Assembly: GCA_044344255.1 (NCBI GenBank)
Contig: JBIJDH010000052.1
Span: forward strand, 1-17,300
Direction of reading: 5' to 3'
Length of the DNA stretch: 17,300 bases
Source: Myxococcota bacterium
Lineage (GTDB): Bacteria > Myxococcota_A > UBA796 > UBA2385
The number at the start of each line of letters is the position of its first letter. Positions within the stretch are counted from its first letter, which is position 1. A program made the position numbers and the translations under genes. Shown here piece after piece: positions 3 to 16,358 of the stretch. The notes under the pieces are model-generated. The model was given only the letters and a program-made list of their open reading frames with translations. It was not told the origin of the DNA and searched no databases.

Positions 3-182
3 TTCATGGGGCCCCTCGTCCACCGGTGCCCGGAGGGACGCTGGGAGAGGCCCTGCCACGAGCTCTTCGACCTGCTGACGCAGCACGGGGACGGCGCCAT
101 GCGCGACGCCTTCGCCCGCTGCGTCGCGCGCGAGACCTTCACCGTCGAGGCCGTCCGCGCCGTGCTCCGGGAGGCCGCATGA
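3..182 (+). CDS. istA: 3' end of IS21-family transposase IstA (partial, runs off window start)
   Basis: Open frame FMGPLVHRCPEGRWERPCHELFDLLTQHGDGAMRDAFARCVARETFTVEAVRAVLREAA* with high GC3. Its TGA (180-182) overlaps the istB ATG (ATGA), the usual IS21 arrangement. Identity is inferred from position. Confidence 0.75.
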   Translation, partial: FMGPLVHRCPEGRWERPCHELFDLLTQHGDGAMRDAFARCVARETFTVEAVRAVLREAA

Positions 183-976
183 ACCCCGGCGACATCGACC
201 TCGACAAGCTGCTCAAGCGCCTGCACCTGCCGACGGTGCGCCGCCTGTACCCGGGCTACGCCACCCGCGCGGCCGCGGAGGGCTGGGCCCACCGCGACTA
301 CCTCGCGCTGCTCATCGCCGAGGAGGTCGCGCATCGCAACGACACGCGCATCCAGAATGCGGCCCGCCACGCCCACTTCCCGTTCACCAAGACGATCGAG
401 AGCTTCGACTTCGTCTTCCAGTCCAGCCTGCGCCGCCAACAGCTCGGACCGTACCTGGGCCCGGAGCTGGTCACCGAGGGGCGGAACCTCATCCTGTCGG
501 GCAAGCCGGGCCGCGGGAAGACCCACCTCGCCGTCGCGATCGCCTACCGCGCCATTCAGAACGGCTTCACCGCCCGCTTCGTTGGCGCCAGCGCGCTGAT
601 CGACGAGCTCGGCGCCGCCTCCCGGGCCGGCCGCCTGCGCGAGGCGACGGCCGCGTGGGTCGAGCCGCACGTGCTGGTCATCGACGAGGTCGGGTACCTC
701 AACCACGCTGAAGACGCCGCCAACGTTCTCTTCGGCGTCGTGGACCAACGCTACCTCGCGCGCAAGCCGATGGTCTTCACGACCAACAAGAGGCTCCGCG
801 ACTGGGGGCAGGTCCTCCACGACCGCGACCTCGCCGAGGTCATCCTCGACCGCGTGCTCGAGCGTGGCGAGCTCATCGCGCTCGGCGGGCCCTCGTGGCG
901 CACGAAGCACCTCGATCCGGAAACCCTCTCCGACGACGGTGCCGATCCGGAGAGCGTCCGGAAAACCGAGCCCTGA
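179..976 (+). CDS. istB: IS21-family helper AAA+ ATPase IstB (265 aa; true start MNPGDIDL at 179, not 26)
   Basis: N-terminal LKRLHLP, FDF motif, Walker A GKPGRGKT, Walker B VLVIDEVGY, TTN, and ILDRV motifs typical of IstB/DnaC-like proteins. Confidence 0.95.
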   Translation: MNPGDIDLDKLLKRLHLPTVRRLYPGYATRAAAEGWAHRDYLALLIAEEVAHRNDTRIQNAARHAHFPFTKTIESFDFVFQSSLRRQQLGPYLGPELVTEGRNLILSGKPGRGKTHLAVAIAYRAIQNGFTARFVGASALIDELGAASRAGRLREATAAWVEPHVLVIDEVGYLNHAEDAANVLFGVVDQRYLARKPMVFTTNKRLRDWGQVLHDRDLAEVILDRVLERGELIALGGPSWRTKHLDPETLSDDGADPESVRKTEP

Positions 977-981
977 CCTGG

Positions 982-1027
982 CCCTGCGGCGAGCGCCGGT
1001 CGGCACGACCGGCGGCGAGTCGCAGGG
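982..1027 (+). other. GC-rich stem-loop just after the istB stop
   Basis: CCCTGCGGC(982-990)/GTCGCAGGG(1019-1027) encloses CGCCGGTCG-GCA-CGACCGGCG (994-1014). There is no U-tract, so it is not a classical intrinsic terminator. Confidence 0.5.
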
Positions 1028-1126
1028 GTCGTCGCGCGCAGATCATCCCACCCGGGCAGGCCGATGGCGCGCGACGAAGCGGGCAGGCCCTTGCCGCGCT
1101 CAACCCGCCGAGTCACGTTCACGAAC

Positions 1127-1173
1127 CCGCCAGACATACCGGATCGAAGCCGCCAGAGTTTCCGGACTCCACA
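1127..1173. repeat. IS21 right end with tandem transposase-binding repeats
   Basis: CCGCCAGACATACCGGA (1127-1143) and CCGCCAGAGTTTCCGGA (1150-1166), followed by CTCCACA (1167-1173). Confidence 0.75.
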
Positions 1174-1447
1174 GCTTCGTACCGAGCGCGTTCGAGGCGC
1201 CCTTGCCAGTGGTCGTCGGTAGCCTTTCGGTCGCGCTCGAGGTCTTCCGCCGCGCGGAGGCTGAGCTCCACCGCGGCCGGAGTCAGCGCGGCGAGCGCGA
1301 GCTCGCAGACCGCGTCGTCGACGCAGGGGGCCGACAGCCCCTGACACGCCGGCCCACCGTAGTGCGATCGCTCCTGCAGGCAGACATACCGCGGATGAGC
1401 CGCTCCATTCTTGCTCAGGTACTGTACGAACATCCGATGGTTGCAGC
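1174..1447 (-). pseudogene. Internal fragment of a large serine recombinase (zinc-ribbon plus coiled-coil region), cut by IS66 on its 5' side and IS21 on its 3' side
   Basis: Translation CNHRMFVQY...RYVC...YGGPACQGLSAPCVDDAVCELALAALTPAAVELSLRAAEDLERDR...WQGRLERARYEA matches the C..M.V.Y...Y.C...C zinc ribbon and LERARYEA segment of recombinase-family proteins. Confidence 0.8.
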
Positions 1448-1471
1448 GTAACCGTCCAGGCTGGCGCCACT
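1448..1471 (+). repeat. IS66 left inverted repeat
   Basis: GTAACCGTCCAGGCTGGCGCCACT. Confidence 0.9.
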
Positions 1472-1519
1472 GCCACCGCGGGCTCCTGCGGGTGATCTTC
1501 CCCTCTGGAGGATCTCCCG

Positions 1520-1879
1520 ATGGGCACCCGACACACACATCTCCTCGAGCGCCGCCGCCTCATCGAGGCCTGGCGCACATCCGGCCTCAGCGCCCACGCC
1601 TTCGCGGTACAGCGAGGCATCGTCCCGGAGACCTTCCGGCGGTGGATCGGTGGTGGCGGCGGCAGCGCCTCGGCGGTGCGGCCGCTCGCGGGGGACCCTG
1701 CCCCGTCCACGGAGAGCGCGCCGCGCTTCCTTGAGGTTCTCCCACCGGAGCCCTCCCCCGTGGTGGCGCGCGAGGTGCCGCTGTTCGCCGTGGAGGTCGG
1801 AGACCACCGCCTCCGCTTCGCCGAGCCGCCGCCGCCGGCCTGGTTCGCGTCCGTCCTGGGGGAGCTGCGCCGATGCTGA
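1520..1879 (+). CDS. tnpA: IS66 accessory protein TnpA (HTH)
   Basis: WRTSGLS..AFA..RGI..ETFRRW HTH pattern and FLEV motif. GGAGG RBS upstream; ATGCTGA overlap with tnpB. Confidence 0.88.
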   Translation: MGTRHTHLLERRRLIEAWRTSGLSAHAFAVQRGIVPETFRRWIGGGGGSASAVRPLAGDPAPSTESAPRFLEVLPPEPSPVVAREVPLFAVEVGDHRLRFAEPPPPAWFASVLGELRRC

Positions 1880-2265
1880 CCACGACGGGCCCCCAGAAGA
1901 TCTACCTCGACCCGGTCCCAGTCGACATGCGGGCGGGGTTCGACCGGCTCGCGGCGCGGGTCCTCGCCGCGGGCTTCGACCTCTATGCCGGTCATCTCTT
2001 CGTCTTCCTGTCGAAGCGGAGGTCCCACTGCAAGGTGCTGACCTGGGACCAGAACGGCCTGCTGATCCTGTTCAAGCGGATCGAGGTGGGCCGCTTCCAT
2101 CTCCCCGTCGTCCCGGAGGGGGTGACCCGCGTGAGCCTGGACGCCACCAGCCTCGCCGTCCTGCTCCAGGGCATCGACCTCAAGGCCCTCCCGGCGGCGA
2201 GGAGTTGGAGTCCGCCGCCGCGGGGATCGACAGCGGATCCCGCCTGTGATCTGGTACGGCCATGA
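1873..2265 (+). CDS. tnpB: IS66 accessory protein TnpB
   Basis: PVDMRAGFDRL, LFVFLSKRR..CKVLTWD.NG...KRIE.GRF and LL.GIDL signature of IS66 Orf2/TnpB. Confidence 0.95.
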   Translation: MLTTTGPQKIYLDPVPVDMRAGFDRLAARVLAAGFDLYAGHLFVFLSKRRSHCKVLTWDQNGLLILFKRIEVGRFHLPVVPEGVTRVSLDATSLAVLLQGIDLKALPAARSWSPPPRGSTADPACDLVRP

Positions 2266-3959
2266 GCACGCCCGTCCGCTCGCTCGACGCCGTCACCGCC
2301 CGCCTCGCGGAGATGAACCCGCTGGTGCGGGCGCTCATCGACCCGCTGCTCCAAGAGCTGCTCGGGGTCGTCGCCGAACTGCAGCAGGAGGTGCGGGAGC
2401 TGCGCGCGGAGAACACCGCCATTCGAGCGGCCTGGGCCGCCGAGGTGGCGGAGCTGCTCGCCGAGCTCGCAGTCAAGGACGCCCAAATCGAGGCCCTGGT
2501 GGCCGAGGTGGCCGACCTCAAGGCCCAGCTCGCGGTCAAGGACGAGCGCATCGCCTACCTGGAGAAGCAGCTCTACGGAAAGAAGTCGGAGCGACGGAAG
2601 AAGGTCTCGGACCCGCGGGTAGAGGCGGCGCGGAAGCTGCGCGCGGAGCGCACGGACGCGGAGCGGGCCGCTCGGCGGGCGGCCGACGACGAAAAGCGGA
2701 AGGCCCGCCTCGCGGCCATTCCGCCCGAGGTGGTGCACATCCCCATCCCGCCCGAGGCCCGCTGCTCCTGTAGCGGGGGCGACCAGCGCCGTCCCCTCGG
2801 AGAGGGCGAGGTGTCCACCCAGTACGAATGGGTCCCAGGGCGCCTCCGCCGCATCGACTATGTCCGGGAGAAGGCCATTTACACCTGTGGAGAGGGCTTC
2901 CTCGTCGCCCCTCCTCCGCCGCAGGTCGTCGAAGGCGCCACCTACGGGCCCCGCCTGCACGCGCACGTCGCCGTCAGCAAGTGCATGGACGTCATGCCGC
3001 TCCACCGCCTGGCGCGAGCCTTCCAGCGCATCGGTGTGCCGCTCTCCGTCTCCACCCTGTGCATGCTCTTCCATCGCTGCGCTGAATCGCTGGAGCCCAT
3101 CTACAAGGCCCTGCTGGAACGACTCCCCGACGTGGACCTCCTCCAGGCCGACGAGACCCGGCAGCCCGTCCTCGACCCGAATCGCGACGAGACGCGCACG
3201 GGCTGGATGTGGACCTTCCTCGACGCCCGGGCCATCGCCTTCGTCTACGATCCGAGCCGCGGCGGGACGGTCCCCAGTGACCTCCTGAAGGGCTCGAAGG
3301 GAACGATCCTGGTCGATGGTCACACCGGCTACAATCCGGTCACCACCCCGGAGGGCCGGGAGCGTGCCGGCTGTTGGTCGCACGCCCGCCGCGGCCTCTT
3401 CCTGGCCCGCGACTACGCCCCCGCCGTCCTCGATGGACTGCTCGCCGACATCCAGCAGCTCTTCCTCGTCGAGCAGGAGGCCATCGAGGAAGGCTTCGCG
3501 GGCTCGATGCGGCACCTGCACCTCCGCCGCGATCGGAGCGGGCCCATCGTCGATCGCATCTTCCGGACCCTCGAGGCCGAGGTCGGGCAGTTCTCCCCGA
3601 AGTCCTCGGTCGCCCAGGCGATGCGCTACGTCCTCAACCAGAAGACCGAGCTCCGCCACTTCCTCAAGGACGCCCGGGTCCCGATCCACAACAACGCCGG
3701 CGAGTCCGCCCTCCGCATCATCGCCCTCTTGCGGAAGAACGCCCTCTTCGTCGGCCATGATGAAGGCGGCCGTCACCTCGCCATCCTCCTCTCCCTCTGC
3801 GCCACCTGCCGACTGCATGACGTGAACCCCGAGGAGTGGATGGCCGACGCCCTCATCCGGGTGACCGAGCGGGGGAGCACCGTCGAGGAGCTCCTCCCCT
3901 GGAACTGGAAGCAGGGGCGCGGCGCCAAGAAGCGAGAGCCCGACAAGGCAGCAGCGTAG
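2262..3959 (+). CDS. tnpC: IS66 DDE transposase TnpC (565 aa)
   Basis: Leucine zipper ending LYGKKSER, then PLHR, catalytic ADET, VDGHTGY, CWSHARR, NNAGESALR, and C-terminal ELLPWNW. Confidence 0.96.
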   Translation: MSTPVRSLDAVTARLAEMNPLVRALIDPLLQELLGVVAELQQEVRELRAENTAIRAAWAAEVAELLAELAVKDAQIEALVAEVADLKAQLAVKDERIAYLEKQLYGKKSERRKKVSDPRVEAARKLRAERTDAERAARRAADDEKRKARLAAIPPEVVHIPIPPEARCSCSGGDQRRPLGEGEVSTQYEWVPGRLRRIDYVREKAIYTCGEGFLVAPPPPQVVEGATYGPRLHAHVAVSKCMDVMPLHRLARAFQRIGVPLSVSTLCMLFHRCAESLEPIYKALLERLPDVDLLQADETRQPVLDPNRDETRTGWMWTFLDARAIAFVYDPSRGGTVPSDLLKGSKGTILVDGHTGYNPVTTPEGRERAGCWSHARRGLFLARDYAPAVLDGLLADIQQLFLVEQEAIEEGFAGSMRHLHLRRDRSGPIVDRIFRTLEAEVGQFSPKSSVAQAMRYVLNQKTELRHFLKDARVPIHNNAGESALRIIALLRKNALFVGHDEGGRHLAILLSLCATCRLHDVNPEEWMADALIRVTERGSTVEELLPWNWKQGRGAKKREPDKAAA

Positions 3960-3980
3960 GCGACGGGTGGCGGGTGGGGG

Positions 3981-4004
3981 AGTGGCGCCAGGCTGGACGG
4001 TTAC
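3981..4004 (-). repeat. IS66 right inverted repeat
   Basis: AGTGGCGCCAGGCTGGACGGTTAC, the reverse complement of the left IR with one mismatch. Confidence 0.9.
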
Positions 4005-4161
4005 AGTGCGACCGTCGCTTGGAGACGAAGACGTAGAGATGGCCGGCATAGAGGTCGAAGCCCGCGGCGAGGACCCGCGCAGCCAGTCGATCGAATCCGG
4101 CACGCATGTCGACCGGGACAGGGTCGAGGAAAATCTTCTGAGGGCCGGTCGCCGTCAGCAT
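4005..4161 (-). pseudogene. tnpB: IS66 tnpB 5' fragment, truncated by the first IS66
   Basis: MLTATGPQKIFLDPVPVDMRAGFDRLAARVLAAGFDLYAGHLYVFVSKRRSH is near-identical to the 1873 TnpB and breaks exactly at the IR (4004). Confidence 0.92.
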
Positions 4162-4505
4162 GCCCGTAGCTCCCCGAGCAGGGCGGCGAACCAAGCCGGC
4201 GGGGGGGGCTCAGCGAAGCGAAGGACCCGCTGCTCGATCTGCACGACGAAGACAGATGCCACCCTCTCCGGCGAGACCGCGAGGGTAGAGACCTGGACCT
4301 CTATGAAGCGCGGCGGGCTCTCCACCACTCTGGTGGCAGGTCGGTCCATCGGCGACGGGGACGAAGGGAGCGTACGGATCCAGCGACGAAAAGTCTCGGG
4401 GGCGATGCCCCGTTCAATCGCATACGCGCCAGCGTTGAGGCCCGAGCGACGCCAGCCCTCGATGAGGCGGCGGCGTTCGAGCAAGGGGGTGTGTCGGGTG
4501 CCCAT
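4155..4505 (-). CDS. tnpA: IS66 accessory protein TnpA (second, diverged copy)
   Basis: MGTRHTPLLERRRLIEGWRRSGL...LRFAEPPPPAWFAALLGELR is a clear paralogue of 1520-1879. Confidence 0.88.
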   Translation of the reverse strand: MGTRHTPLLERRRLIEGWRRSGLNAGAYAIERGIAPETFRRWIRTLPSSPSPMDRPATRVVESPPRFIEVQVSTLAVSPERVASVFVVQIEQRVLRFAEPPPPAWFAALLGELRAC

Positions 4506-4832: not shown

Positions 4833-6284
4833 CTACCGCTTCTTCCGCTTCCGCGCCGACACCGGCGCCACGTAGGGCGCCGGCGCCGAGGAAGGCACTG
4901 CCGCGCCCTCGGCCGGTCCAATATAGCGAGCGAGGGCGATGTTCACCGCACCCATGTTCGTCCCGCCGCGGAGCGCCGTACTGGCCGTGTCGAGCTCACC
5001 CGGGAAGGTCATCCGGAATGCGTTGGCGCCCTGCTGGATGGTGTAGGATCCGGTGCAGACGCCGGGCATCACCCCTGCGGCGTCACTCAGAGCGAAATGG
5101 AGCTGCGGCGTACAGCTCAGGTTCACACTGGACGTCCCGTTCAGTTCATGGCGCCCCTCGACGATCACCATCCGCGGCGGCCGCCAAGTGAACCGCGTGA
5201 CCGTAGTTACCACCGTGTAGTTGTCCTTGAAGAAGGTCCCCTTCTTGCCGTATGCCGTGCCCGAGCCGCTCGCCTCGAAGACGCCTCCCGCCGCGTAAAA
5301 CCAAGCGGTCACCATCGGGGACGCTTCGGGGTCTGCGCCTACGTGACCCAGCCCCACACGGATGAGCTCCGAATAGCCTACCCGACGCTCGTCGGCGTTC
5401 AGCTCGTCCCAGGTGGGCGTACCGGCCCGGAGCTCCTGGTACCAGAGATTAGTGATCGCTGGGACGAAGCTCGCCACACCGCACGAAGCGGGGGCGGCTT
5501 CGAGCTCCACGAGCGCGGTGGCATAGTGGCGAGCTTCCACCGAGGTGGCCGCGAGGGCCCGGGTGGCCGCGCTACAACCCTCGTTTGCAGCTTTCCTTCG
5601 CGCGGGGCTCAGCACTGCGGCCTCGGCCAGGATTGGGGTAAGCGCCTTCATCGCGGCGGCATCGTCCTTGCCGACCTGAGCGAGGGCGACGGTGAGCGCC
5701 TCGTCCACCTCGGAGGCGTGCCGCATCGCCGCAATGTTCCACGCGATCAACCCGAGGATCACCGCGCCGATGGCCAGGGTTCCGACAGCGAAGATGACGA
5801 TGGCGACGCGACGCCGGCGTCGGGCCGCATACCAGCCACGAAGCTCAGCTTCCAGCCCCTCCAGCTTTTCGAGCGCGCCATTCCCCGCTTCGAGGAGTTC
5901 CTCAGCCACCTCGACTGCCGGCCGGGAGCCTGAGTCGGAGGCCGGGCTGCGCGCAACGCGGGCCCAGCTCTCCGCCAGGATCTTCCCGGCCGATCCCGAA
6001 TTCTCCGCCAAGAGTGCGGCCCTTTCGAGGCGCTGTCGTCGGATGCCGAGATCCGCAACCGCCTCGCGCCTGCGGGCACTGTGCTCCTCCTCGGCCGACT
6101 GAGCCTCAGCCTCCAGCCGCGCCGCCCTCTCCATCGCCGCCCTGAACGCCTCGTTCGCCGCGCTCACCGCCGCGACGCCTGCCAGGTCGACCGTAGCACG
6201 CCCCGCCTCCGCCGCGCTCTCGGCCGCGGCCACGCGCCCGAGCGTCAAGGTCCCCGCCCGCGCCAGCTCAGTGGGGTCAAGCAC
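4833..6284 (-). CDS. Single-pass membrane protein (483 aa): N-terminal coiled coil, one TM helix, C-terminal helical plus beta-rich domain of unknown function
   Basis: Ala/Glu/Arg-rich coiled N-terminus; RRRRR followed by VAIVIFAVGTLAIGAVILGLIAW (positive-inside rule, C-terminus out). GTG start overlaps the FtsK stop by 8 nt. Confidence 0.8.
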   Translation of the reverse strand: MLDPTELARAGTLTLGRVAAAESAAEAGRATVDLAGVAAVSAANEAFRAAMERAARLEAEAQSAEEEHSARRREAVADLGIRRQRLERAALLAENSGSAGKILAESWARVARSPASDSGSRPAVEVAEELLEAGNGALEKLEGLEAELRGWYAARRRRRVAIVIFAVGTLAIGAVILGLIAWNIAAMRHASEVDEALTVALAQVGKDDAAAMKALTPILAEAAVLSPARRKAANEGCSAATRALAATSVEARHYATALVELEAAPASCGVASFVPAITNLWYQELRAGTPTWDELNADERRVGYSELIRVGLGHVGADPEASPMVTAWFYAAGGVFEASGSGTAYGKKGTFFKDNYTVVTTVTRFTWRPPRMVIVEGRHELNGTSSVNLSCTPQLHFALSDAAGVMPGVCTGSYTIQQGANAFRMTFPGELDTASTALRGGTNMGAVNIALARYIGPAEGAAVPSSAPAPYVAPVSARKRKKR

Positions 6285-9165
6285 GGGAACCCCCCTTCGG
6301 GGCCAGCCTGTCGAGCACCATGGCAGAGGGGGGGCCGTAGGGGCGGATCTTCACGTTGGTGCCCTCGGATGCGTCGTGGACGACGGCCCGCGCCATGCCG
6401 CAGTGGGTGGCAACCATGTCGTCGGTAAGTCGTTGTGACTCGTCGGCGGTGGTCTGGAAGACGAGGCGGTGCTGGAAGCTCTCAAGCGCGCGGGATCCGA
6501 GGCTCCGCTCAAGGGAACGCACCGTGTCGGTCCAGACGATGATGTGCACACCGCGCTCGGAGCCACCGTGGAGGAGGCTCTGGAGTGCGGTAGCCGCCGC
6601 CGCCGCGGGCGGCGCGTCGAAGGAGAGGGAGTCGGACACGCTGAGGTCAGAGACGCGCGCTGGGGCGACAATCACGAGGAACTCCCAGCGCAGGGGCGGA
6701 CCGTGGTCGAGAACCGGGGCCGCCGACCAGGCCGCGTGCACCCGCTGTACGCTCGCCCCCACGTCCCTACGCCGCCCGACGAAGGTCGTATGAGGCAGGC
6801 GCCGCACCGCGCCCTCCAGCGCGCCCGCCCCGACCTCGTCGCCAGCGAGCAGAAGGAGATGGAACCGCGCCCGCTCCACCGGAATCGCGGCAGCCATGAG
6901 CAGGAGGCCGGCAGCCAGAGCGTCGAGGGCGCGGCCGGCCCCGCCCGCCAGCAGCAGGTTCGCGCCGGGCGCCAAGGCGAGGGTGACGGCAACCGGACCG
7001 GCAAGGCTCAGCGGCTCGCCGAGGGGCAGCTCCGGGGCGAGCGGCGCCGGGGCCCGGCGGCCCGAGCTGATGAGGGGGTGGAGATCGGGGCACCCGAGGC
7101 CAGAGCCGTCGAACACCACCGGGCGCTCGCGGTCGGCGAATTTCTCCGCCACCTCTCGGAGGATCGCGTCGCGCTCAGCGTCCTCGGCGATCGCCACTTG
7201 GAACTGGGTGTTACCCTCCACCCGACCCTCGGCGTCGTTGTAGATGGCCTCGCCCGGCCGGGACAGCAGCCGCGCTGCGCCATTATCTTCGCCGAGGATC
7301 AGCCGTGAATCGGCCTCGTTGCAAATCAACGCGATGCGCACCGCCATCTGGGCGGCGGTTGTGGTCGGGAGACCGCGGCCGTGCGCGCTCGAGAGGGACT
7401 GGCTCGCGAGGAGAATGTGGATGCCCGGAGCGCGCCCAAGCCGGACGATCTGGTCGAGGATCTGGGCGGCACGGGTCGAGATCGCTCCTTCCTGGCCGAG
7501 AAGCACCTGGAACTCGTCCATCACGAGCAGGATGCGCGGGAGGGGTTCGCTCGGCTTGAGGCGCCTGTAGGCCGCGAGGTTCTGCACCCGGTTCCGGGTG
7601 AAGAGGTCGAGGCGGCGCGCCATCTGGGCGGCGAGATCCTCCAACACCGCGAGGGCGAACTCGGGATCGGACTCAACGGCCACCACCCGCGCGTGGGGGA
7701 GTGCCGCGTCGGCATAGGGCTTGAACTCGACCTGCTTTAGATCGATCAGGTAGAGCTGGATCTCCTCGGGCGGGTAGGCGATGATCGCCCCCTGCACCAG
7801 GGTGTGGAGCAGGGTCGACTTCCCTGAGCCGATCTTGCCGGCCACAAGCACATGGTGGCAGACGCCGCTCCCGACGCGGAAACGCGCGATCTTCTTGGCC
7901 CCGGCCGGTCCGAGCGGCACATCGATGCCGTCGATCGTCTGCGCGGACCACCACTCGTCGCGCGCGCGGGTGATCGCCCGAAAGGGCACCCGCATCTGGC
8001 TCGCACCCACCGCGGCCGGACCGATGCTCTCCACGATGCGGCGGCGGAGCGCGGGCGGCGGCGAGGCCTCAGGCTCCAGGGTCCAGCCGGCGTAGGCCGG
8101 GTGGTCAAGCGCGGGCGCCGTGTCGTCCACGAGGTGGGTCACGCCCTCGAGGAGGCTCCGGGGGGAAATGCCGTGAGGGGTTTTGATCCCCATGTTTCGC
8201 AGGATGACCGTGAGAACCCCGCAGCGCACACCGCTCTGCATGATGCTCCGGAGCCGCTCGACGGCGTCGGCAGTGAATGCGGCCGGGAAGTCGAACACGA
8301 CGAGCACCTTGTAGGGCGCTGGCATGCTCTCGTTCGCCGCGTTGTAGGCCTCGAGATCTGCGTAGTCCGTGCGGAGCCGCTTCTGGATGATGATCTCGAT
8401 GTGGGCCGTGAGGTCAACTAGGCGCTCCTGGATGTGGGCTGACTCCGTCCAGACCTGCCCGCCGATGAGTTCGCGATCGTGGTCGGCAAGGTAGGTGAAG
8501 GCAGCCGCGCTCTCGCCACGCCCAAGTGGGTCGATGAACACGAACTGGAGGCGGCCAGGCGGAAGGGAGGCCAGGAGGCGGAGAAGAAGGCGGTCGATGA
8601 GCTCCTGGCAGGCCGGACGCCGGGCCGGGCTGGGCGACAGGACGAGCGGGATGCCACCGGCAATCGGAACCAGCGCCGGAATCGCGAGGTGGCTCCTGCC
8701 GGGTTCGGTACCGCGCGGCGTGAAGCCAGACGGGAGGGGGCGTCTGAGCGTCCCGATGGCCGCATGATATGGGGGGGCGAGAGCGGTCGTGGGGGACCAA
8801 GCGTCCCATGCCGGGTCATGCCAGGGGCATCCGAGCGTGCCCAGGCGGGCGCGGGTTTCGGCGCCGGCTTTGGCAAGGCGGCCGAACTCGATGGCCGCGG
8901 CGCTCTTGGCGTCCCGGAGCGTGCGGGCAATGCGGTCGTGCTCGGCGCGGCCGGACTCGGCGGAAATAGCCTTGGCGGCTTGACTCGTCGCGCTGGCCGC
9001 CGCCTCCGACTCCGCTCGGTCCCGGCCTGCGGCGCCCAGGGCTGCGAGGTGGCGCACCTGCTCCTCTTGCTCGGCACGCGTGAGGACAGCCGGGAGATCA
9101 CGCCTTCCGCGCGAGAAGCTATCGGCGGTCTGCTGCATGGCACGGATGAGGCCGTCACGGTCCAT
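6277..9165 (-). CDS. FtsK/SpoIIIE-domain ATPase, EccC/EssC-like (962 aa; three RecA-like domains, no TM segment)
   Basis: Central domain HVLVAGKIGSGKS / LYLIDLKQVEF / PRILLVMDEFQ / GRAPGIHILLASQ. Degenerate flanking domains: FVFIDP..LVVFDFP..GVRCGV and NLLLAG..GSERGVHIIVW. Encoded beside WXG100 genes. Confidence 0.92.
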   Translation of the reverse strand: MDRDGLIRAMQQTADSFSRGRRDLPAVLTRAEQEEQVRHLAALGAAGRDRAESEAAASATSQAAKAISAESGRAEHDRIARTLRDAKSAAAIEFGRLAKAGAETRARLGTLGCPWHDPAWDAWSPTTALAPPYHAAIGTLRRPLPSGFTPRGTEPGRSHLAIPALVPIAGGIPLVLSPSPARRPACQELIDRLLLRLLASLPPGRLQFVFIDPLGRGESAAAFTYLADHDRELIGGQVWTESAHIQERLVDLTAHIEIIIQKRLRTDYADLEAYNAANESMPAPYKVLVVFDFPAAFTADAVERLRSIMQSGVRCGVLTVILRNMGIKTPHGISPRSLLEGVTHLVDDTAPALDHPAYAGWTLEPEASPPPALRRRIVESIGPAAVGASQMRVPFRAITRARDEWWSAQTIDGIDVPLGPAGAKKIARFRVGSGVCHHVLVAGKIGSGKSTLLHTLVQGAIIAYPPEEIQLYLIDLKQVEFKPYADAALPHARVVAVESDPEFALAVLEDLAAQMARRLDLFTRNRVQNLAAYRRLKPSEPLPRILLVMDEFQVLLGQEGAISTRAAQILDQIVRLGRAPGIHILLASQSLSSAHGRGLPTTTAAQMAVRIALICNEADSRLILGEDNGAARLLSRPGEAIYNDAEGRVEGNTQFQVAIAEDAERDAILREVAEKFADRERPVVFDGSGLGCPDLHPLISSGRRAPAPLAPELPLGEPLSLAGPVAVTLALAPGANLLLAGGAGRALDALAAGLLLMAAAIPVERARFHLLLLAGDEVGAGALEGAVRRLPHTTFVGRRRDVGASVQRVHAAWSAAPVLDHGPPLRWEFLVIVAPARVSDLSVSDSLSFDAPPAAAAATALQSLLHGGSERGVHIIVWTDTVRSLERSLGSRALESFQHRLVFQTTADESQRLTDDMVATHCGMARAVVHDASEGTNVKIRPYGPPSAMVLDRLAPKGGSRA

Positions 9166-9373
9166 CGTCGTCCTCTGTGTCGGTCAGGGCCTCGTCCAAG
9201 TCGGCCAAGGCGGCCAGCGCGGCGCGGCAAGCGGCATCCAGGGGATCGAGGCACGCCCGGCCGAACATGGCCCGTCGGGCGTCGGCCCAGGTGGCCTCTG
9301 TGGACCCGTAGGCCCGGTGAAGGCGCGAGCGCTCCTCATCGAGCGCGTCGACGAGTTCGCCGAAGGTGCTCAT
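9155..9373 (-). CDS. Small WXG100-like helical protein (72 aa, central WAD)
   Basis: Helix-W-A-D-helix pattern (TEATWADARRAMFGRACLDPL). ATGA-coupled to the upstream gene and overlapping the FtsK start by 11 nt. Confidence 0.7.
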   Translation of the reverse strand: MSTFGELVDALDEERSRLHRAYGSTEATWADARRAMFGRACLDPLDAACRAALAALADLDEALTDTEDDDGP

Positions 9374-10377
9374 CGGGTGGGGCCCTCAGGGAAGCCTCGT
9401 GCCGCGACCCGCCCCCAGTCCTCACCGCGCATCACCACTTCCACAGGCAGGGTCGCGAGCCCCTGGCGTTGGGCGACGAAGATCCGGTGAGCGCCGCCAC
9501 TCACGGACCAAGCCTGCCCGTCCCACTCTACCCGGACGAGCTCGCCCCGGCTGCCATAGAAGGCGTCAAAGACGCGGCGATAGCCGGACTCGTAGTCGAG
9601 GCCCTGGGCGGCGTCCATGGCGGTGAAATCCTCGGCGGTGGCGCCCTTCTGGACGAGGGGGCGCACCACCGCGTCGAGCTTCGCGATCCCGTCCACCATC
9701 TGGGCGTAGGAAACCTTGCGGAAGTCGGCATGGGACTGCACGTGGGACCCGCCCATGTCGAGGGCGGAGAGCGGGAATTCCACGCACCCCACTGTCGTGA
9801 AGCCGGATGAAGAGGCAGCCTGGGTGATGGCGGCGGTCACGCTCGGAAGCTGAACGGGGCCGGGAGGGGATGTGCTCGGTGCCGGAGCGCCGATGGCGCT
9901 GTCCGGAGGACGCTCAGCCTCGTAGGCTCGTACCGCGCGAATGAAGCCGTCGAGCCAGCCGATGCCAGCCGCGGCGCGATCGACGATCGCCGCGTCCAGG
10001 CGGGCGAGCTTCGCGCGGGCACGGTCCGCCAGGCGGGCCACATCGGCCTGGGACTCCCGGAGCGCCTCGAGGGCCTCCCTGGCGGCGTCCAGCTCGCCGC
10101 GGGCCTCGGCGTAGCGGCGGTCGTCGTAGCCGTCATCGTCGTCATCGTGGTCATCGTCCCGCTCGTCAGCGCAGGCCTCGGCAAGCTCGCGCTCTGCCTC
10201 GTCGAGCCGGCGCTCAGCGGCCTGGATTCGCGCGGCGAGGCGCTCCTCCGCGCGAGCAGCCCGGCTCCGGGCCTCGATCAGAATCCCGCGGGCTTCCTCT
10301 GCGAAGCGGCAGAGGGCACGCCGAAGATCGACGACCGGCCCCGTGCTCCACAGCTCGACTCGGTCACCGGACGTCAC
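9370..10377 (-). CDS. Putative effector (335 aa): N-terminal helical hairpin/coiled coil, Pro/Ser linker, C-terminal ParB/Sulfiredoxin-like domain
   Basis: GTG at 10377 preceded by AAGGAGG. N-terminus DLRRALCRFAEEA...LDGFIRAVRAY is helical; linker PPDSAIGAPAPSTSPPGP; C-terminus LVRVEWDGQAWSVSGGAHRIFVAQRQGLATLPVEV fits the ParB/Srx G-x-H-R motif. Confidence 0.75.
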   Translation of the reverse strand: MTSGDRVELWSTGPVVDLRRALCRFAEEARGILIEARSRAARAEERLAARIQAAERRLDEAERELAEACADERDDDHDDDDDGYDDRRYAEARGELDAAREALEALRESQADVARLADRARAKLARLDAAIVDRAAAGIGWLDGFIRAVRAYEAERPPDSAIGAPAPSTSPPGPVQLPSVTAAITQAASSSGFTTVGCVEFPLSALDMGGSHVQSHADFRKVSYAQMVDGIAKLDAVVRPLVQKGATAEDFTAMDAAQGLDYESGYRRVFDAFYGSRGELVRVEWDGQAWSVSGGAHRIFVAQRQGLATLPVEVVMRGEDWGRVAARGFPEGPTR

Positions 10378-10636
10378 GCGCCTCCTTTGCCTTCTGGGCC
10401 TTGCGGATGAGGTACGGGTAGTGCTGGGCGCTGGCGCGCTGGAACTTCTCGATCTCCTGCATCGTGACTCGGAACTGCTCCGCAAAGGCGCGGTGCGACT
10501 CGTCCTGCCAATGCTCGCTCAAGCGCCCGAGCTGTCCCTTGAGGGTCGCGAAACGCTCGCCTAACTGGTCGTTGAACATCTTGAGACCTCTGGCGAACGC
10601 CTCGATCTCCTCAGGGGTCAGATTGATGCTCGCCAT
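10364..10636 (-). CDS. WXG100/EsxA-like protein (90 aa, WQD variant)
   Basis: MASINLTPEEIEAFARGLKMFNDQL...LGRLSEHWQDESHRAFAEQF...YLIRKAQ: ~90 aa, two helices around a central W-x-D. Has its own RBS (GAGGAAAGCG-ATG). Confidence 0.88.
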   Translation of the reverse strand: MASINLTPEEIEAFARGLKMFNDQLGERFATLKGQLGRLSEHWQDESHRAFAEQFRVTMQEIEKFQRASAQHYPYLIRKAQKAKEARDVR

Positions 10637-11272
10637 CGCTTTCCTCGGGTTGCTGGAAGCCTTAGTAACGCACGGAGCAACGCTGCGCGCCCCGCTTCCC
10701 GGCTTGCGTGCCACCTTGTGCCATGGCGAGGAGAACCGCAGGCCACCTGCGAACAAATGCCGGGTGCTCAGGTAGCAGCTGTAGTGATATGTCGGCGTCA
10801 CGCCGAAGGTCGCGCGGTAGGCCGTGATGTGGCGATCTCGCTGTTCCCCGTAACGCCCGGAAACTTCGGCCAGGGCCTCCCCGTTCGCACGGGCCTTGAG
10901 GTCCACGATGCGGTGGATCTGCAGATCGACATAGTCGTACCTCACCGTTCCGCCGTCGGGGTGTGTGAGCACGTACTCGATACCGAAGTCGCGGTCGCGC
11001 ACGCGCCCACGCGAGATCTCGCGAGCGAGGAGCCGCGCTTGCCAAGTCCTGTGCTCCGCCTGGCCGACCTGGATCGCGAACGCGACGCGGGCCTTCGGCA
11101 ACCGCTCCCATGTCCGACGCGCCTCCCTTTGTTGGTGTTCCAGGACTCGTTCTTCGCGCCTCCGTTGTGCACTCCTTTCCTCCGCTCGATGCGGCGCGTC
11201 ACGCTCGGCCTCGGGCTCCGCTCCCGGTCGCGCCGAGCCCTCGCCGTCGAATTCCTTCCAGTGCTCCGCCAT
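10364..11272 (-). CDS. Putative restriction-endonuclease-fold (PD-(D/E)xK) nuclease; frame continues without a stop into the WXG100 gene (302 aa if fused)
   Basis: GIEYVLTHPDGGTVRYDYVDLQIHRIVDLK...EQRDRHITAY gives an E..RxD..DxK..Q...Y arrangement as in REase-fold toxins. Start uncertain (ATG 11272 or 11404). Confidence 0.62.
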   Translation of the reverse strand: MAEHWKEFDGEGSARPGAEPEAERDAPHRAEERSAQRRREERVLEHQQREARRTWERLPKARVAFAIQVGQAEHRTWQARLLAREISRGRVRDRDFGIEYVLTHPDGGTVRYDYVDLQIHRIVDLKARANGEALAEVSGRYGEQRDRHITAYRATFGVTPTYHYSCYLSTRHLFAGGLRFSSPWHKVARKPGSGARSVAPCVTKASSNPRKAMASINLTPEEIEAFARGLKMFNDQLGERFATLKGQLGRLSEHWQDESHRAFAEQFRVTMQEIEKFQRASAQHYPYLIRKAQKAKEARDVR

Positions 11273-11691: not shown

Positions 11692-11924
11692 CCTCTTCTG
11701 GACCGGTGCCGGAATCCCTTGATCTGCGCCGTGACGGCCGGCTGCCCAGTGGGGCGACATCGATCCTCCGGAGTCATGCTAACAACTGCTTGAATTCCGC
11801 TAAGTGAACTGCATTGTCCCCAAGCACCATCAGCCAGCGGGTCTCCAGGCTGCTCCAGCGGTTCCGCGGCGGACTTTATCGACATCGTGACCGTCGTGCC
11901 ACCGCTGCCACTTCCGACTCGCCT

Positions 11925-12243
11925 TCCCCGCCTTCCCCGCGTAGTCCCCGCCTTCCCCGCCCGGTCCCCGCCCCACCGGGTCCCTGGCTGCTCGCCTTGT
12001 ACGTCGCTTCTCGACCTCGGTCCCCGATGTCCCCGCTTCCTGAAGGGGGTCCCCCATGATGGGAGCGCCGCGAATCATCATCTGCCGCCGATGCGATCGC
12101 GCGCTCCCGCTCCCAATAGGCGTACAGGGGTCCTGAACGGCGGGGACCGCGGGGACCGGCGGTGATCCACGGCGGATAACGCCCACACCCCGGGACCCGC
12201 TCCCCCGGGGACCGGGCGGGGATCGACGGCCCCGAAGCGGGGA
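11925..12243. repeat. Opposed TCCCCG/CGGGGA repeat arrays: candidate iteron replication origin
   Basis: TCCCCG at 11925, 11934, 11945, 11954, 11965, 12021 and 12030; inverted CGGGGA at 12141, 12150, 12206, 12217 and 12238. Lies directly downstream of the DUF927 helicase gene. Confidence 0.7.
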
Positions 12244-12293
12244 CCGCCGTCGCCGGACCCTACTTCTGCCTTCCCCATCCCGGCCTGGTGGCG

Positions 12294-14462
12294 TCAGCTC
12301 GGGTCGCCCGACTCCCCGCTCACGGCGTCGGCCGCAGCCCGCGTAATCACCACGCAGCGCTCCTTCCTCGCCCCGACGGTCACCTTCTTCGTGAGGTGCC
12401 CCTCGTCGTGGAGCAGCCAGCCGCGCTGGTCCCAGGTGCGGAGCACCGCCTCGGCGTCGTGCTTCTGCTTCTCCAGGAAGCCGCGGAGCTCGGTGGGGAG
12501 CACCGCCAGCGCCCGCCACTCCACGCGGCTCGCCCAGGCGCCGAGCCACCCGCCGGCGGGGGCCTCGTCGCTCCCCTGCTCCCCTTCGAGGCGACCGTAG
12601 AAGCGATGCTGCTGGGAAGTCGCCCAGGAGAGCACGTCCCGGAGCGCGTCGGCGGCGCGGTCGGCCTCGGCCGAGGACTTCACCACGGCCTCCCAGGCCA
12701 CCAGCACCGGGTCCGTCGCTGGCGCCGGCACGCCGAGGGCCTCGTGGAGCAGCCACTTCGCCACGTCGAGGGCGGCGACGTACTGCGCGGCCCGCCCGGC
12801 GACGGGGTTCCCGTTGCACTGCCGCGTCCACTCCTCGACCCGCCAGGCGTACATCCGGCGGAGGCCCTCGGTGGCCTCGGGTGTGGCGAGCAGCCACTGG
12901 AGCAGCCGCGGCCCGGCGTGCCCGTGGTGGGCGAGCACCCCCTCGGTGATGCGCTGGACGGCGGCGAGAGTATCCGCGTTACACGCGCCGAAGGGCGAGC
13001 CCCAGATGCAGAGGGTCCGAGCGCGGGTGCCACCGTCGTTGGTGAAGCTCGTGGCAGGGGCCTCCCCGGTGGAGAGCAGCACACCGTGGGCCCGCGACGT
13101 TCGCTGAATGCCCTGAAGCGAGCCGCGCCCGCGGCCGACGCCGGAGGCGAAGTCGTAGAGGGTGCGGCCCACGTCCTCGGGGCGGCGGGCCCGCTTGGTG
13201 TCGTCGAGGAAGGTGGGGAGGTAGTCCGTGAGGGCAGCGGCGCGCTCGACATAGACGCGGGTGTGGTCCCAGGAGACGACGATGCCCCCGCTGCGCTCGT
13301 CGGGGTTCCCCCAGACCGAAGCGGCGAGGCGCAGGGTAGTGGTCTTACCGCGGCTGGTCTCCCCGCAGAAGTCCACGATGAAGTTGGCCAAGGTCGGCAG
13401 CATGGCCATCAGGGGCGGCACCAGCGCGGTGTAGAGGGCGAGCATCGCCGCCGGGTAGGGCAGCGCCGCCTTCACCGCCTCCAGCCAGCCCTCCCAGGTG
13501 CCCGAGGCCCGGAAGCCATCTGCGAGGGCGCGCACGCCGGGCTCCGAGACAAGCAGGTGGAGCTGGCCGGGGATCCAGCGCGCGGGAGGGAGATCCTCGA
13601 CTGAGCCGGTGGAGAGGATGCCACCCGCCCGAACCACCGCGCGGCCCCAGAGGAAGCAGCGGTCCTCGCCGCTCCCGTACCAGCCCATCTGACCGGTCAC
13701 CCGGGCCTCGGGGAGCACCTCGGCGTTCGCGGCCTCGAAGTCTGCGAGGAAGGCGACCAGCTCCGCGGCGGTGTTCGAGGTGACCGGCGCGTCGTGGGCG
13801 GCGAAGGCCACGAGACCCCGCGCATCGGCCGCCTTGCCGCGGGGCACGGAGTGGAGGTGCCAGCCGCCACAGGCGCCGGTCCAGGCCATCGCCCAGGTCA
13901 CGCTGTTGTCGTGGATGTCGCGATAGCGGCCCTCGATGACGACGGGCCGGTGGGCCACGTCGATGGCGTTGATGTCGCCGCTCTCGTCGTCCATCCGGAG
14001 GCGGGCGATGCCGGTGGGGCCGAGGTCCCAGCCGGGTGGACAGCGCAGGCCGGGTGGCAGCAGGTGGTCGCCCAGCACCGTCGCCAGGGCCTCGGCGAGG
14101 GGCGGGGCGATGCCGCGCTCCACCGCCGCCTGGCGCCGCCCACCCTGCTCCGCGCGAAGCTGGCGGGCCGCCACCTCTCGAACGGAGCGCTCCAAGCGGG
14201 CCGCCCGCTGGCGGAAGCCCCTCCGCGCACCGAGGCGCAGGAGGAGGGCCGCCATCCGGTCGGGGGCGACGCGCCAGGCGGCACCGAGTGCCTCCATCGT
14301 TGCGGCATCTTCGAGCAGGGCCGCGAGCAGGGCAGTCGTCGCCTCGAGGTCTGCGGCACCCTCCACCGCCAGGGCGAGCTCGCCCAGACGCTCCAGGCCC
14401 GGGGTCGCGTCGGGCGGCGGCAAGGGCGTGATCCCGCAGACCTTCGACATCCAGTCAGCCAC
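12294..14462 (-). CDS. DUF927-domain (Cch-like) replicative helicase/ATPase (722 aa)
   Basis: QMGWY, GTWEGW, Walker A GETSRGKTT, ASVWGNP, Walker B FLDD, GVGRGR, LSTGE, R-finger TRAR and HHGHAG motifs of DUF927 proteins. Start overlaps the primase stop. Confidence 0.88.
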   Translation of the reverse strand: MADWMSKVCGITPLPPPDATPGLERLGELALAVEGAADLEATTALLAALLEDAATMEALGAAWRVAPDRMAALLLRLGARRGFRQRAARLERSVREVAARQLRAEQGGRRQAAVERGIAPPLAEALATVLGDHLLPPGLRCPPGWDLGPTGIARLRMDDESGDINAIDVAHRPVVIEGRYRDIHDNSVTWAMAWTGACGGWHLHSVPRGKAADARGLVAFAAHDAPVTSNTAAELVAFLADFEAANAEVLPEARVTGQMGWYGSGEDRCFLWGRAVVRAGGILSTGSVEDLPPARWIPGQLHLLVSEPGVRALADGFRASGTWEGWLEAVKAALPYPAAMLALYTALVPPLMAMLPTLANFIVDFCGETSRGKTTTLRLAASVWGNPDERSGGIVVSWDHTRVYVERAAALTDYLPTFLDDTKRARRPEDVGRTLYDFASGVGRGRGSLQGIQRTSRAHGVLLSTGEAPATSFTNDGGTRARTLCIWGSPFGACNADTLAAVQRITEGVLAHHGHAGPRLLQWLLATPEATEGLRRMYAWRVEEWTRQCNGNPVAGRAAQYVAALDVAKWLLHEALGVPAPATDPVLVAWEAVVKSSAEADRAADALRDVLSWATSQQHRFYGRLEGEQGSDEAPAGGWLGAWASRVEWRALAVLPTELRGFLEKQKHDAEAVLRTWDQRGWLLHDEGHLTKKVTVGARKERCVVITRAAADAVSGESGDPS

Positions 14463-15387
14463 GGGCCGGACCCTCGCCCGCGGCGTCCAGCAGGCGGTCG
14501 AGGGGCCCCCACCACCCGCAGGAGTTGCGATGGTTGCAGCGCGCCCCCTTCATGCGGTCGGGCTCCAGCCAGAACCAGACCGAGGGCCGCCCACAGCTGG
14601 GGCAGTGGGCTCCAGTGGCCCGGCCCCCCCGCAGGACCGCCTGCAGGTGCTCGGCGGCGCGGAGGCGGGCGCCCGAGTCGGTGTGGAGCCGATGCCGGGC
14701 GAGGCGGGCGGCCTCGTCCCAGGGGAGGCGGACGGCGCCTGGGGTCCGGCCGGGTCGCGCAGCCGGCCGCGGGACCGGCGGCACCAGCGCGAGCGCCTCT
14801 TTGAGCAGCCGGTCGGGGTCGAGGAGGGGCGCCTCCCAGGCCTTCGCCGCCGCCCGGCCCCCATCCGGCCGGAGCGCCGGCAGGAAGAGCGCGCGGGCGA
14901 GGTCCTTGGTGAGCGCATCCACGCCGGCGCCGAGGCGCTTCGCCAGGAGTGTCCACAGGAGCCTGAACTCAACCGCGTTCACGTCCCGAGCGAGCGGGAA
15001 GACGAGGCGGAAGCGGTGGGCCTCCGGTCGATGCCGCCAGGTCGTGTAGAGGACGTGGTGGACATCGAGGAAGCGCTGGTGGGCCGCCTGGGTGGTGGGG
15101 CCGCCCTCCACGTCGAGCGCGACCACCGAGGCCCGCTCGAAGGCAGTGTTACGCCGCTCGTTCCGCGTGAAGGCCCCGATGAGGAAGAAGGGGCAGGCGA
15201 ACTTCCCCTCCCCCGGCTGGGGGCGCGTGAGGAGTCGCTCCAGGGCCGCGAGGTCGCCGGTCCACCGTCGGCCTACCGTCGGCCAGACGACACCGTCGGC
15301 GGCCTCCGGAGAGCCCCCCGGCCGCACGGCGGGAGGGTCCAGGAGCGTGAGTGTGAAGGTCCGCGCGGCCGTCGTCGGGGGTGTCAC
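14455..15387 (-). CDS. Primase-polymerase-like (AEP superfamily) protein with C-terminal zinc finger (310 aa)
   Basis: VALDVE (DxE), YTTWRHRPEAHRFRLVFPLARDV, D..TKD..RALF and C-terminal CPSC...CNHRNSC. GTGA-coupled to the BRO gene and coupled to the helicase. Confidence 0.75.
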   Translation of the reverse strand: MTPPTTAARTFTLTLLDPPAVRPGGSPEAADGVVWPTVGRRWTGDLAALERLLTRPQPGEGKFACPFFLIGAFTRNERRNTAFERASVVALDVEGGPTTQAAHQRFLDVHHVLYTTWRHRPEAHRFRLVFPLARDVNAVEFRLLWTLLAKRLGAGVDALTKDLARALFLPALRPDGGRAAAKAWEAPLLDPDRLLKEALALVPPVPRPAARPGRTPGAVRLPWDEAARLARHRLHTDSGARLRAAEHLQAVLRGGRATGAHCPSCGRPSVWFWLEPDRMKGARCNHRNSCGWWGPLDRLLDAAGEGPARG

Positions 15388-16358
15388 GCGGCCCCCTTCG
15401 GATGCTCGTCGTCCTCGAAGAAGGCCAGGATCCGGGAGAGGGCCTCATCATTGTAGACCCAGGCGAACACGGTCTTGTCGTGGCCGCGGGCCTTGGTCAT
15501 GACCTGTCGGGAGAGGCCCGCTGCGCCGCGCAGCCCGAGCCGCGTGAGGGCGAGGCCCACGGCATGGGGCGTGGCGCCGACCCTCGCCGCGATCTGGGTC
15601 GGGCTGTACCAGCGCTCGGGGACCACGGGGCGGAGCTCGGGGAGCTCCCGGCCGAGCGCGATCTCGGTTGCGGCCACCTCGTAGGCGACGCGCGTGGTCT
15701 GGTCAATCTGCTCGAGGTCGTGCAGCACCCGCACCGTCTCCCGGAGCGACGCCGACTCGAATTTCCGAAGGCGGAGTCCGTGCTGGGCGGCGAGGCGCCG
15801 CTCGCGGTCGGCGTCCACGAAGGGGCGGTTGGCGGCGCGCACGGGGACGGCGACGACCAGGGCGAAGGGCAGCGCCACCTGCCCCGGCGCCCGCAGGGTG
15901 GGAGTCGACGTCGGCTCGGGGCGCGGCTCCGGCGGGGCGTCGGACTTCGGAGCGTAGCGGCCGGTCCGCGCGAGCTGCGGTATCACCTCGTCGGCGAGGA
16001 AGCGGCGGAAGCGGATGCCCGCCTCCTTCTCGGTCCTCGCCAGCGCGAGGTACAGCCCCGACTCGAAGAGGATGACGATCCCGCGGTTGCTCCGCAAAGG
16101 TCCCGGATCGGGACCTTCGGCGCCCATGGCCTGCTGGAGCAGGGCGGCCTCGCTCCCGAGGAGGACCGCGAAGTCCTTCCCATCGACGAATTCCTTACCC
16201 CACTCGCCGGTGATGCTGCTGGTGAAGCGCTTGCCGCCATTGGCGTAGCCGAGGGCGCTGCCGACCTCCCGGGCCACCCAGGCCGGGCGCCCCTTGTAGG
16301 TGAGGGTAGTGACACGGCGTTCCTCGAATCGGTGGATCGCCCGAACGATGCGCTCCAT
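15384..16358 (-). CDS. BRO-N domain antirepressor-like protein with C-terminal HTH-like region (324 aa; true start MERIVR at 16358)
   Basis: GRPAWVAREVGSALGYAN and ESGLYLALARTEKEAGIRFRRFLADEVIPQLARTGRY are BRO-N motifs; WYSPTQIAARVGATPHAVG is HTH-like; AGGAGG lies 5 nt before the ATG. Confidence 0.9.
   Translation of the reverse strand: MERIVRAIHRFEERRVTTLTYKGRPAWVAREVGSALGYANGGKRFTSSITGEWGKEFVDGKDFAVLLGSEAALLQQAMGAEGPDPGPLRSNRGIVILFESGLYLALARTEKEAGIRFRRFLADEVIPQLARTGRYAPKSDAPPEPRPEPTSTPTLRAPGQVALPFALVVAVPVRAANRPFVDADRERRLAAQHGLRLRKFESASLRETVRVLHDLEQIDQTTRVAYEVAATEIALGRELPELRPVVPERWYSPTQIAARVGATPHAVGLALTRLGLRGAAGLSRQVMTKARGHDKTVFAWVYNDEALSRILAFFEDDEHPKGAA

Follow-up and report, generated by a model that had tools for sequence, protein, structure and literature searches.

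The window analyzed here is a 17,300-nt stretch of DNA that makes up the whole of contig C35 in the 8.2 Mb, 71% GC and 95%-complete genome of a Myxococcota bacterium, and it carries a probably recently acquired operon of type VII secretion-like genes. Every coding unit between positions 11272 and 4833 lies on the minus strand, in the frames 11272-10364 (302 aa), 10377-9370 (335 aa), 9373-9155 (72 aa), 9165-6277 (962 aa) and 6284-4833 (483 aa). The gene order, the co-orientation and the overlaps of 14, 4, 11 and 8 nt between successive frames are as described in the original prediction, which was made from the sequence alone. The products are a nuclease domain in frame with a WXG100 protein, a two-helix hairpin bearing a ParB/sulfiredoxin (Srx)-fold domain, a small WXG100-like protein, an EccC/EssC-like ATPase and a coiled-coil protein with a transmembrane (TM) helix (Table 1). 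This is a real operon and not a chance arrangement, because the gene set recurs: a WXG100 protein, a hairpin protein and a small WxD protein occur together at 44 of the 47 metagenome loci for which 4 kb or more are available upstream of the ATPase gene (48 of 80 overall). The loci are the best 80 of 562 matches, annotated by our own gene calling; since the search patterns derive from the family consensus and many of the loci are planctomycete-like by their neighbors, the sample is biased.

Table 1. Features of the 17,300-nt window (positions in nt; insertion sequence, IS).
Feature	Position	Strand	Basis
Acidic leader and PD-(D/E)xK nuclease domain, Tox-REase-9-like	10637..11272	-	Atlas, homologues
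WXG100 protein, 90 aa, W43-x-D45	10364..10636	-	PF06013
Two-helix hairpin (13-155), linker, ParB/sulfiredoxin-fold domain (~193-317)	9370..10377	-	AlphaFold 2, Foldseek, profiles
Small WXG100-like partner, 72 aa, W29-x-D31	9155..9373	-	Profile of related loci
EccC/EssC-like ATPase, 962 aa	6277..9165	-	PF01580, model, Foldseek, motifs
Coiled coil, one TM helix (162-180), orphan C-terminal region, 483 aa	4833..6284	-	TM prediction
GGGGAC-repeat region, 83-nt inverted repeat, origin-like	11944..12244	.	Repeat count, homology to contig C10
DUF927/Cch-type replicative helicase	12294..14462	-	DUF927 115 bits; 96% copy on contig C10
Replicon primase	14455..15387	-	PHROG primase families
Bro-N antirepressor	15384..16358	-	Domain/family matches
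IS debris 3' of operon: IS21 istB, serine-recombinase-like fragment, full IS66, IS66 remnant	179..4505	.	Family matches

The restriction endonuclease (REase)-fold reading frame had been counted as a unit of its own. It has no stop of its own, and the nuclease unit (start 11272) and WXG100 form a single 302-aa frame without an intervening stop; WXG100 has a start of its own, an ATG at 10636 that is preceded by GAGGA. Homologous WXG100s are 90-aa proteins that start where this ATG lies. An assembly error is unlikely, because a contig from a second sample (run X2) spans 9745-10726 with zero differences and no indel is listed in three DNA runs; the linker part 10727-10918 lies outside the listed covering pieces. 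An RNA run has small contigs that cover WXG100, the hairpin and the beginning of the ATPase (7 of 30 bins), a weak hint of expression. The same run has no contigs over the replicon, and that it has none at the nuclease portion or at the TM gene is uninformative. Searches for promoters and att sites gave nothing useful.

The ATPase starts with a coiled coil of about 110 residues (helices 3-112), followed by three ATPase-fold domains, of which the middle one alone has Walker A (443-450), Walker B (D550, E551) and an arginine finger (R578). Its model (pLDDT, the predicted local distance difference test, of 84) matches EccC (4nh0, E 6e-29 over ~950 columns), then EssC and then FtsK in Foldseek, which together with the PF01580 match bears out the three-domain FtsK-type ATPase recognized earlier. 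Against the NCBIfam models for EccCa and EssC it scores 108 and 73 bits, with cut-offs of 509 and 778. The family has 4,865 matches among 8,000 candidates scored, and exactly one Walker A match is present in 72 of 73 non-window ATPases of related loci. In a tree of 33 rows, from which L069 (no Walker A match), L054 and L072 were left out, the window ATPase forms a long branch, and we therefore claim no donor. Decay of the protein was considered and rejected: the catalytic motifs are kept, and its 31% deviation from the consensus lies within the 28-43% of other divergent members.

In 35 of 46 long homologous ATPases the N-terminal coiled coil contains a hydrophobic segment. At four loci with short ATPases (L029, L097, L090 of G411 and L091 of G402) a separate neighboring gene encodes a coiled-coil/TM protein; those at L029 (E 1.4e-6) and L097 (E 9.8e-5) match the N-terminus of the long ATPases, and the TM proteins of G411, G402 and the window resemble it in architecture or weakly. 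Such a gene was absent from the DNA examined at L069 and L078, and the partner of the L103 ATPase has no TM segment. The window's last gene encodes the single-TM protein that had been predicted. A homologue search with it returned itself alone, it has no clear Atlas fold match, and it does not match the N-terminal profile of the long ATPases at E ≤ 1. It aligns weakly but colinearly with the split anchors (4.8 bits, E 1.5), a score reached by 1 of 300 block shuffles. On balance, the gene probably represents a split-off membrane anchor of the ATPase. The anchor region, whether fused or split, often comes with WD40 or TPR repeats (L009, L095, L029, L097).

WXG100 matches PF06013 with 38 bits (cut-off 27, E 1.7e-9) and is the sole WXG100 protein found in the genome. 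Its 72-aa partner has no Pfam match but fits (E 1.4e-11) a profile built on 55 small WxD proteins of related loci, and the W and the D are invariant in this family.

The model of the 335-aa protein (pLDDT 86) consists of a long two-helix hairpin and a compact domain. ParB-CDP and sulfiredoxin lead the Foldseek matches of the latter (E ~0.05), the family profile matches ParB and SbnI chains, and Pfam ParB_N is found in 10 of 34 family members. The domain carries G295-x-H297-R298, and the GxHR is invariant in its family. Thus both the fold and the motif assigned to this protein by the original prediction hold. VIA-align of the hairpin protein gave generic coiled coils only. The ParB-like domain has 397 representatives at E ≤ 0.001, and in the best 150 of these the hairpin is present 92 times, including in the window's own protein.

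The nuclease domain (residues ~45-175; G70xxxH74, E99, D113, D124-x-K126) falls into the Tox-REase-9 cluster of the Atlas by its features (0.91) and matches PD-(D/E)xK folds with a TM-score of 0.68; Pfam gives no match. The GxxxH, E and D of Tox-REase-9 are present, DLKA replaces ELKP, and YxxE is absent. Both enzyme-like domains of the operon are therefore predicted to have folds that act on nucleic acids or nucleotides, as had been proposed. Among proteins below 315 aa, three non-window homologues with 52-54% identity were found; each stops 10-80 residues past the domain, without a fusion to WXG100. The nuclease belongs to the system, since one protein (P0187) has the same nuclease between a coiled coil and a ParB-like domain in a single chain. 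An acidic leader like that at the start of the nuclease unit (window 11272-11150) is often found at the beginning of stand-alone ParB-like proteins; a loose pattern, applied without a chance control, found this likeness in 8 of 54 short hits (P0126, P0134, P0176, P0183, P0185, P0203, P0212, P0256). The leader is possibly a targeting tag.

The C-terminus of the hairpin is a swappable effector slot. Among 61 non-window hairpins, 11 have a folded domain, of at least four kinds: ParB-like (four, one of them behind a nuclease), nuclease-like (L009, L012, L029, L097), GNAT (L099) and DUF6782 peptidase. These kinds are listed among the polymorphic toxin domains in the cited part of Zhang 2012 (PMC3482391). 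Moreover, a WXG100-like domain is fused directly to a GxHR ParB-like domain in P0228 and at L091:18891-19595 (G402), which suggests that an effector can ride on WXG100 in place of the hairpin.

The observed gene set, folds, motifs, swappable effector slot and patchy distribution support a reading to which we assign a probability of about 0.45, namely that this copy of the minimal ('mobile') type VII-like module was acquired horizontally and translocates effectors. Three things fit export: the ATPase is EccC-like in fold, a membrane anchor is common in the family, and the hairpin tails are polymorphic. By analogy with an LXG toxin and its two Lap partners, the hairpin would bind both WXG100-like proteins, and the three most likely form a helical rod that the ATPase recognizes. 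The ATPase would oligomerize and be held at the inner membrane by the separate coiled-coil/TM protein, and its one active motor domain would move the rod with the ParB/Srx-fold domain out of the cytoplasm. The nuclease fused to WXG100 would probably be exported with the rod, for use in conflict. The host genome encodes LpxC; the host is a lipopolysaccharide-bearing diderm, and the predicted route is followed up to its inner membrane.

A number of observations weigh against this translocator. Low-complexity tails, without an enzyme domain, are found on 50 of the 61 non-window hairpins. No immunity gene was found within the window, and in 9 of 10 evaluable cases an effector hairpin is followed directly by a core gene, with no immunity candidate (a 117-aa reading frame comes next at L022, and the DNA ends there at L102). 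The window ATPase has no TM segment, and what links it to the TM gene is the weak sequence match alone. The window WXG100 lacks Y86, which is nearly invariant near the C-terminus in the family alignment. Neither EccB and EccD of T7SSa (T7SS stands for type VII secretion system, which has a and b forms), for which the controls were positive, nor EssB/YukC of T7SSb was found in the 95%-complete genome of this LpxC-bearing host. Finally, the literature searched, which left out most subscription papers, contains no experiment on any member of the module.

The prevalence of low-complexity tails also bears on another explanation, in which the core has an effector-independent job, such as envelope or stress signaling, suggested by the conserved planctomycete-type loci, and the window copy, possibly impaired, is carried along as a passenger amid IS debris. 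The conserved chromosomal neighbors at many relative loci fit this explanation, as do the lost stop between nuclease and WXG100, the lost Y86 and the long ATPase branch. However, no frame is broken and the catalytic motifs are conserved, the deviation of the ATPase is inside the range of other divergent members, three other DNA runs list no indel, and the small RNA contigs hint, weakly, at expression. We consider this explanation improbable.

The window copy looks mobile, to judge from its patchy occurrence, its low GC content at third codon positions (GC3), its DUF927 replicon neighbor and a defense island. The ATPase was found in none of 60 relatives and in 3 of 401 genomes of the phylum, this one included; both other same-phylum copies lie among ordinary genes in the DNA examined. 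For the phylum of G425 the count is 8 of 401 genomes. A scan of genome contigs with the single ATPase protein gave five loci. The ParB-domain profile has one match in the 401 genomes of G425's phylum, and it misses some members, as the existence of the loci L103 and G402 indicates. No relatives of the ATPase, the ParB-like domain or WXG100 were confirmed in viral contigs, by pattern searches that miss distant relatives, and plasmids yielded two partial ATPase matches and no ParB-domain match. GC3 is 0.78-0.87 in the operon and 0.91-0.92 in the primase and helicase, with a genome median of 0.93 (259 long reading frames, 3.5% of them at ≤0.86).

The neighboring replicon has a sister copy on contig C10 that is 95% identical and without the operon. 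Homology ends at 11944, the end of the repeat-rich, origin-like stretch, where 9 GGGGAC hexamers are found in 400 nt versus 0.35 expected from the genome rate. Beyond this end, C10 continues with an IS66 piece and then a PDC-M38A-like gene, a PADLOC candidate (L107:6404-7399). In the second sample the operon and the replicon end are also joined, since an X2 contig bridges 10919-12043. Between them lie 106 nt (11711-11816) that share 80% identity with a place on contig C39, perhaps what is left of a small gene pair. The contig, which ends inside the element, contains neither integrase or recombinase genes nor att sites; no direct repeat longer than 10 nt was found between the tested flanks. A fragment at 1119-1538, cut by IS elements, resembles a serine-recombinase zinc ribbon (Pfam E 0.056) and could be the lost recombinase of the element or part of an unrelated transposon. 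Two other contigs carry serine-recombinase elements, C9 (L109) with a VapE helicase beside a vWA-PP2C-kinase triad and C28 (L108) with DUF927 and a PolA-like gene.

The operon had been proposed to be mobile cargo beside a satellite-like replicon. For this copy the occurrence, GC3 and island agree with mobility, and the operon is plausibly cargo; as a family trait the replicon link is not supported, because the DUF927, primase and Bro-N genes of the window are found in none of 103 relative loci (1.18 Mb, some overlapping and many short). Scanning 165 of 265 candidate neighbors (Pfam E ≤ 1e-12) gave mostly metabolic genes, a few PIN, Uma2 and nucleotidyltransferase genes, and no integrase, transposase or DUF927. 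The replicon link is thus not a family trait, and most relatives lie among housekeeping genes. The same data bear on the idea that the ATPase is a DNA pump that mobilizes the replicon in the role of a coupling protein. Its FtsK/HerA fold and the adjoining primase/helicase replicon would suit such a role, but EccC and EssC rank above the DNA-pumping FtsK and TcpA in Foldseek, the WXG100 partners are constant, the replicon genes were not found in the 103 relative loci and the sister replicon lacks the operon. We regard a DNA pump as very improbable.

Of all contigs, C38 alone ends with the 127 nt that open the window. C38 contains at ~23,900-46,600 (L113, L111) two GmrSD-N genes and genes for UvrD, a DruE-like 2123-aa helicase, PtuAB, a type IIG restriction endonuclease-methyltransferase and a DrmD-like SNF2 helicase. 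This defense cluster is probably contiguous with the window through an IS21; if the join is right, the defense genes start ~11.5 kb from the operon. The first part of C38 (1-15,400; L112) is a co-oriented gene run with a 1709-aa methylase-SNF2 helicase and an amidase.

Such surroundings suit an intracellular anti-phage role, in which the rod would keep the nuclease and the ParB/Srx-fold domain inactive until, on infection, the ATPase remodels or releases them to degrade DNA or drain nucleotides (abortive infection). The missing immunity genes, both in the window and beside the evaluable effector hairpins, agree with this, as do effectors that need cytoplasmic substrates (e.g., the GNAT at L099), the failure to find EssB, EccB and EccD in a diderm host and the PDC-M38A-like gene in the slot after the sister replicon. 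Moreover, vWA/PP2C(/kinase) genes are interspersed among those of the module at two of the four non-window hairpin-ParB loci (L102, L103); TerY-P counts among the tested anti-phage systems in the cited part of PMC7699616, and modules of this type occur inside CoCoNuT operons in the part of Bell 2024 cited here (PMC11090510). On the other hand, PADLOC gave no specific match for any operon protein and generic matches only for 30 picked neighbors of relatives, the relatives are mostly among housekeeping genes, most hairpins carry no effector, the membrane anchor is common in the family, and islands gather mobile cargo of any kind. We regard this role as rather unlikely, and as doubtful its fuller form, a type VII motor repurposed as an immunity-free intracellular anti-phage device whose swappable effectors (ParB/Srx-fold, nucleases, GNAT) sit on WXG100 rods until infection releases them and which can travel as DUF927-replicon cargo. 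If the favored export reading is true, a type VII machine of three to five parts can work in a two-membrane cell; if phage defense is true, a secretion motor has been turned into an effector-release switch. Either outcome bears on the definition of a minimal type VII system.

The original prediction had regarded the operon as a candidate new system, which it is not in its core, because two earlier papers describe the module; it was predicted in 2012 and is widespread. In the note to their Table 1 (note 6), Zhang 2012 (PMC3482391) describe a solo WXG with a three-domain, middle-active YueA-like ATPase as 'mobile versions of T7SS', and the cited text ties T7SS toxins to firmicutes, actinobacteria and chloroflexi. 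The window shares with these the solo WXG100 and an ATPase with three HerA/FtsK domains of which the middle one is active; a hairpin carrier, an effector slot, a ParB/Srx effector and a split anchor go unmentioned in the cited text of that note. The same ATPase, together with two WXG100 proteins and a coiled coil fused to a nuclease, is also set out as a mobile stand-alone module in the cited part of Bell 2024 (PMC11090510, citing Anantharaman et al. 2012). With this EssC-like extension of CoCoNuT the window has in common a D2-only ATPase with an N-terminal coiled coil instead of FHA/TM, two WxD WXG100-like proteins and a coiled coil-enzyme fusion. In contrast to the form set out there, the coiled coil of the window bears a ParB/Srx-fold domain where a D-ExK nuclease is described, the window's nuclease shares a frame with WXG100, a coiled-coil/TM gene is added, and no TerY vWA or McrBC genes are among the proteins of the 17.3 kb contig. 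The place that a DNA-mimic (DMP12-like) gene takes there after the coiled-coil fusion holds the 72-aa WxD protein here. The word 'ParB' does not occur in the main text of Bell 2024, although the supplements of both papers may list such variants; the preprint PMC10542128 v3 has no WXG100 passage. In the literature covered, we found no description of a ParB-bearing variant, an effector slot or missing immunity genes.

The module is, as proposed, minimal, non-canonical and T7SS-like. EccC of T7SSa (4nh0) and EssC of T7SSb (4lya, 5fv0) are the best structural matches of the ATPase model, but the window protein scores far below the family cut-offs, has one active domain and lacks a membrane anchor of its own. 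In T7SSb, an LXG toxin and its pair of Lap proteins make up a helical rod (Klein et al. 2024, PMC10801868). That system, as presented in the cited part, shares with the operon a helical N-terminal carrier with a variable C-terminal enzyme, two small helical partners and an adjoining EssC-type ATPase; it differs in that the window has no EssB that we could find, no immunity gene and an ATPase without FHA/TM, and the complex is a predicted one here. Judged by sequence, the operon appears to work like a type VII substrate-handling machine, yet it does not show the membership features of T7SSa and T7SSb that were looked for.

Polymorphic toxin systems likewise combine a constant N-terminal carrier with a variable C-terminal enzyme, but with an adjacent immunity gene. 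Tox-ParB, as described in the cited part of Zhang 2012, has the ParB fold and a related motif, with DGHHR in place of GxHR, and the window domain has a helical insert; Tox-REase-9 of the same source has the nuclease fold with GxxxH, E and D, whereas the window has DxK and not ELKP, and no YxxE. Both window domains are carried by the hairpin or WXG100 and not by RHS or FilH repeats. The neighboring replicon resembles phage satellites (P4/PICI-like) in its primase/helicase replicon and DUF927/Cch replicons (SCCmec Cch1, PT1028-like satellites) in its primase, DUF927 helicase, repeat-rich origin-like region and variable DNA beyond, and differs from the latter in that no integrase/recombinase and att sites are in the contig and the cargo status is putative. 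What the window adds to the known core module is thus the ParB/Srx-bearing variant, the effector slot, the missing immunity genes and a compact copy of five or six genes with one catalytic lysine and two motif-bearing effector domains.

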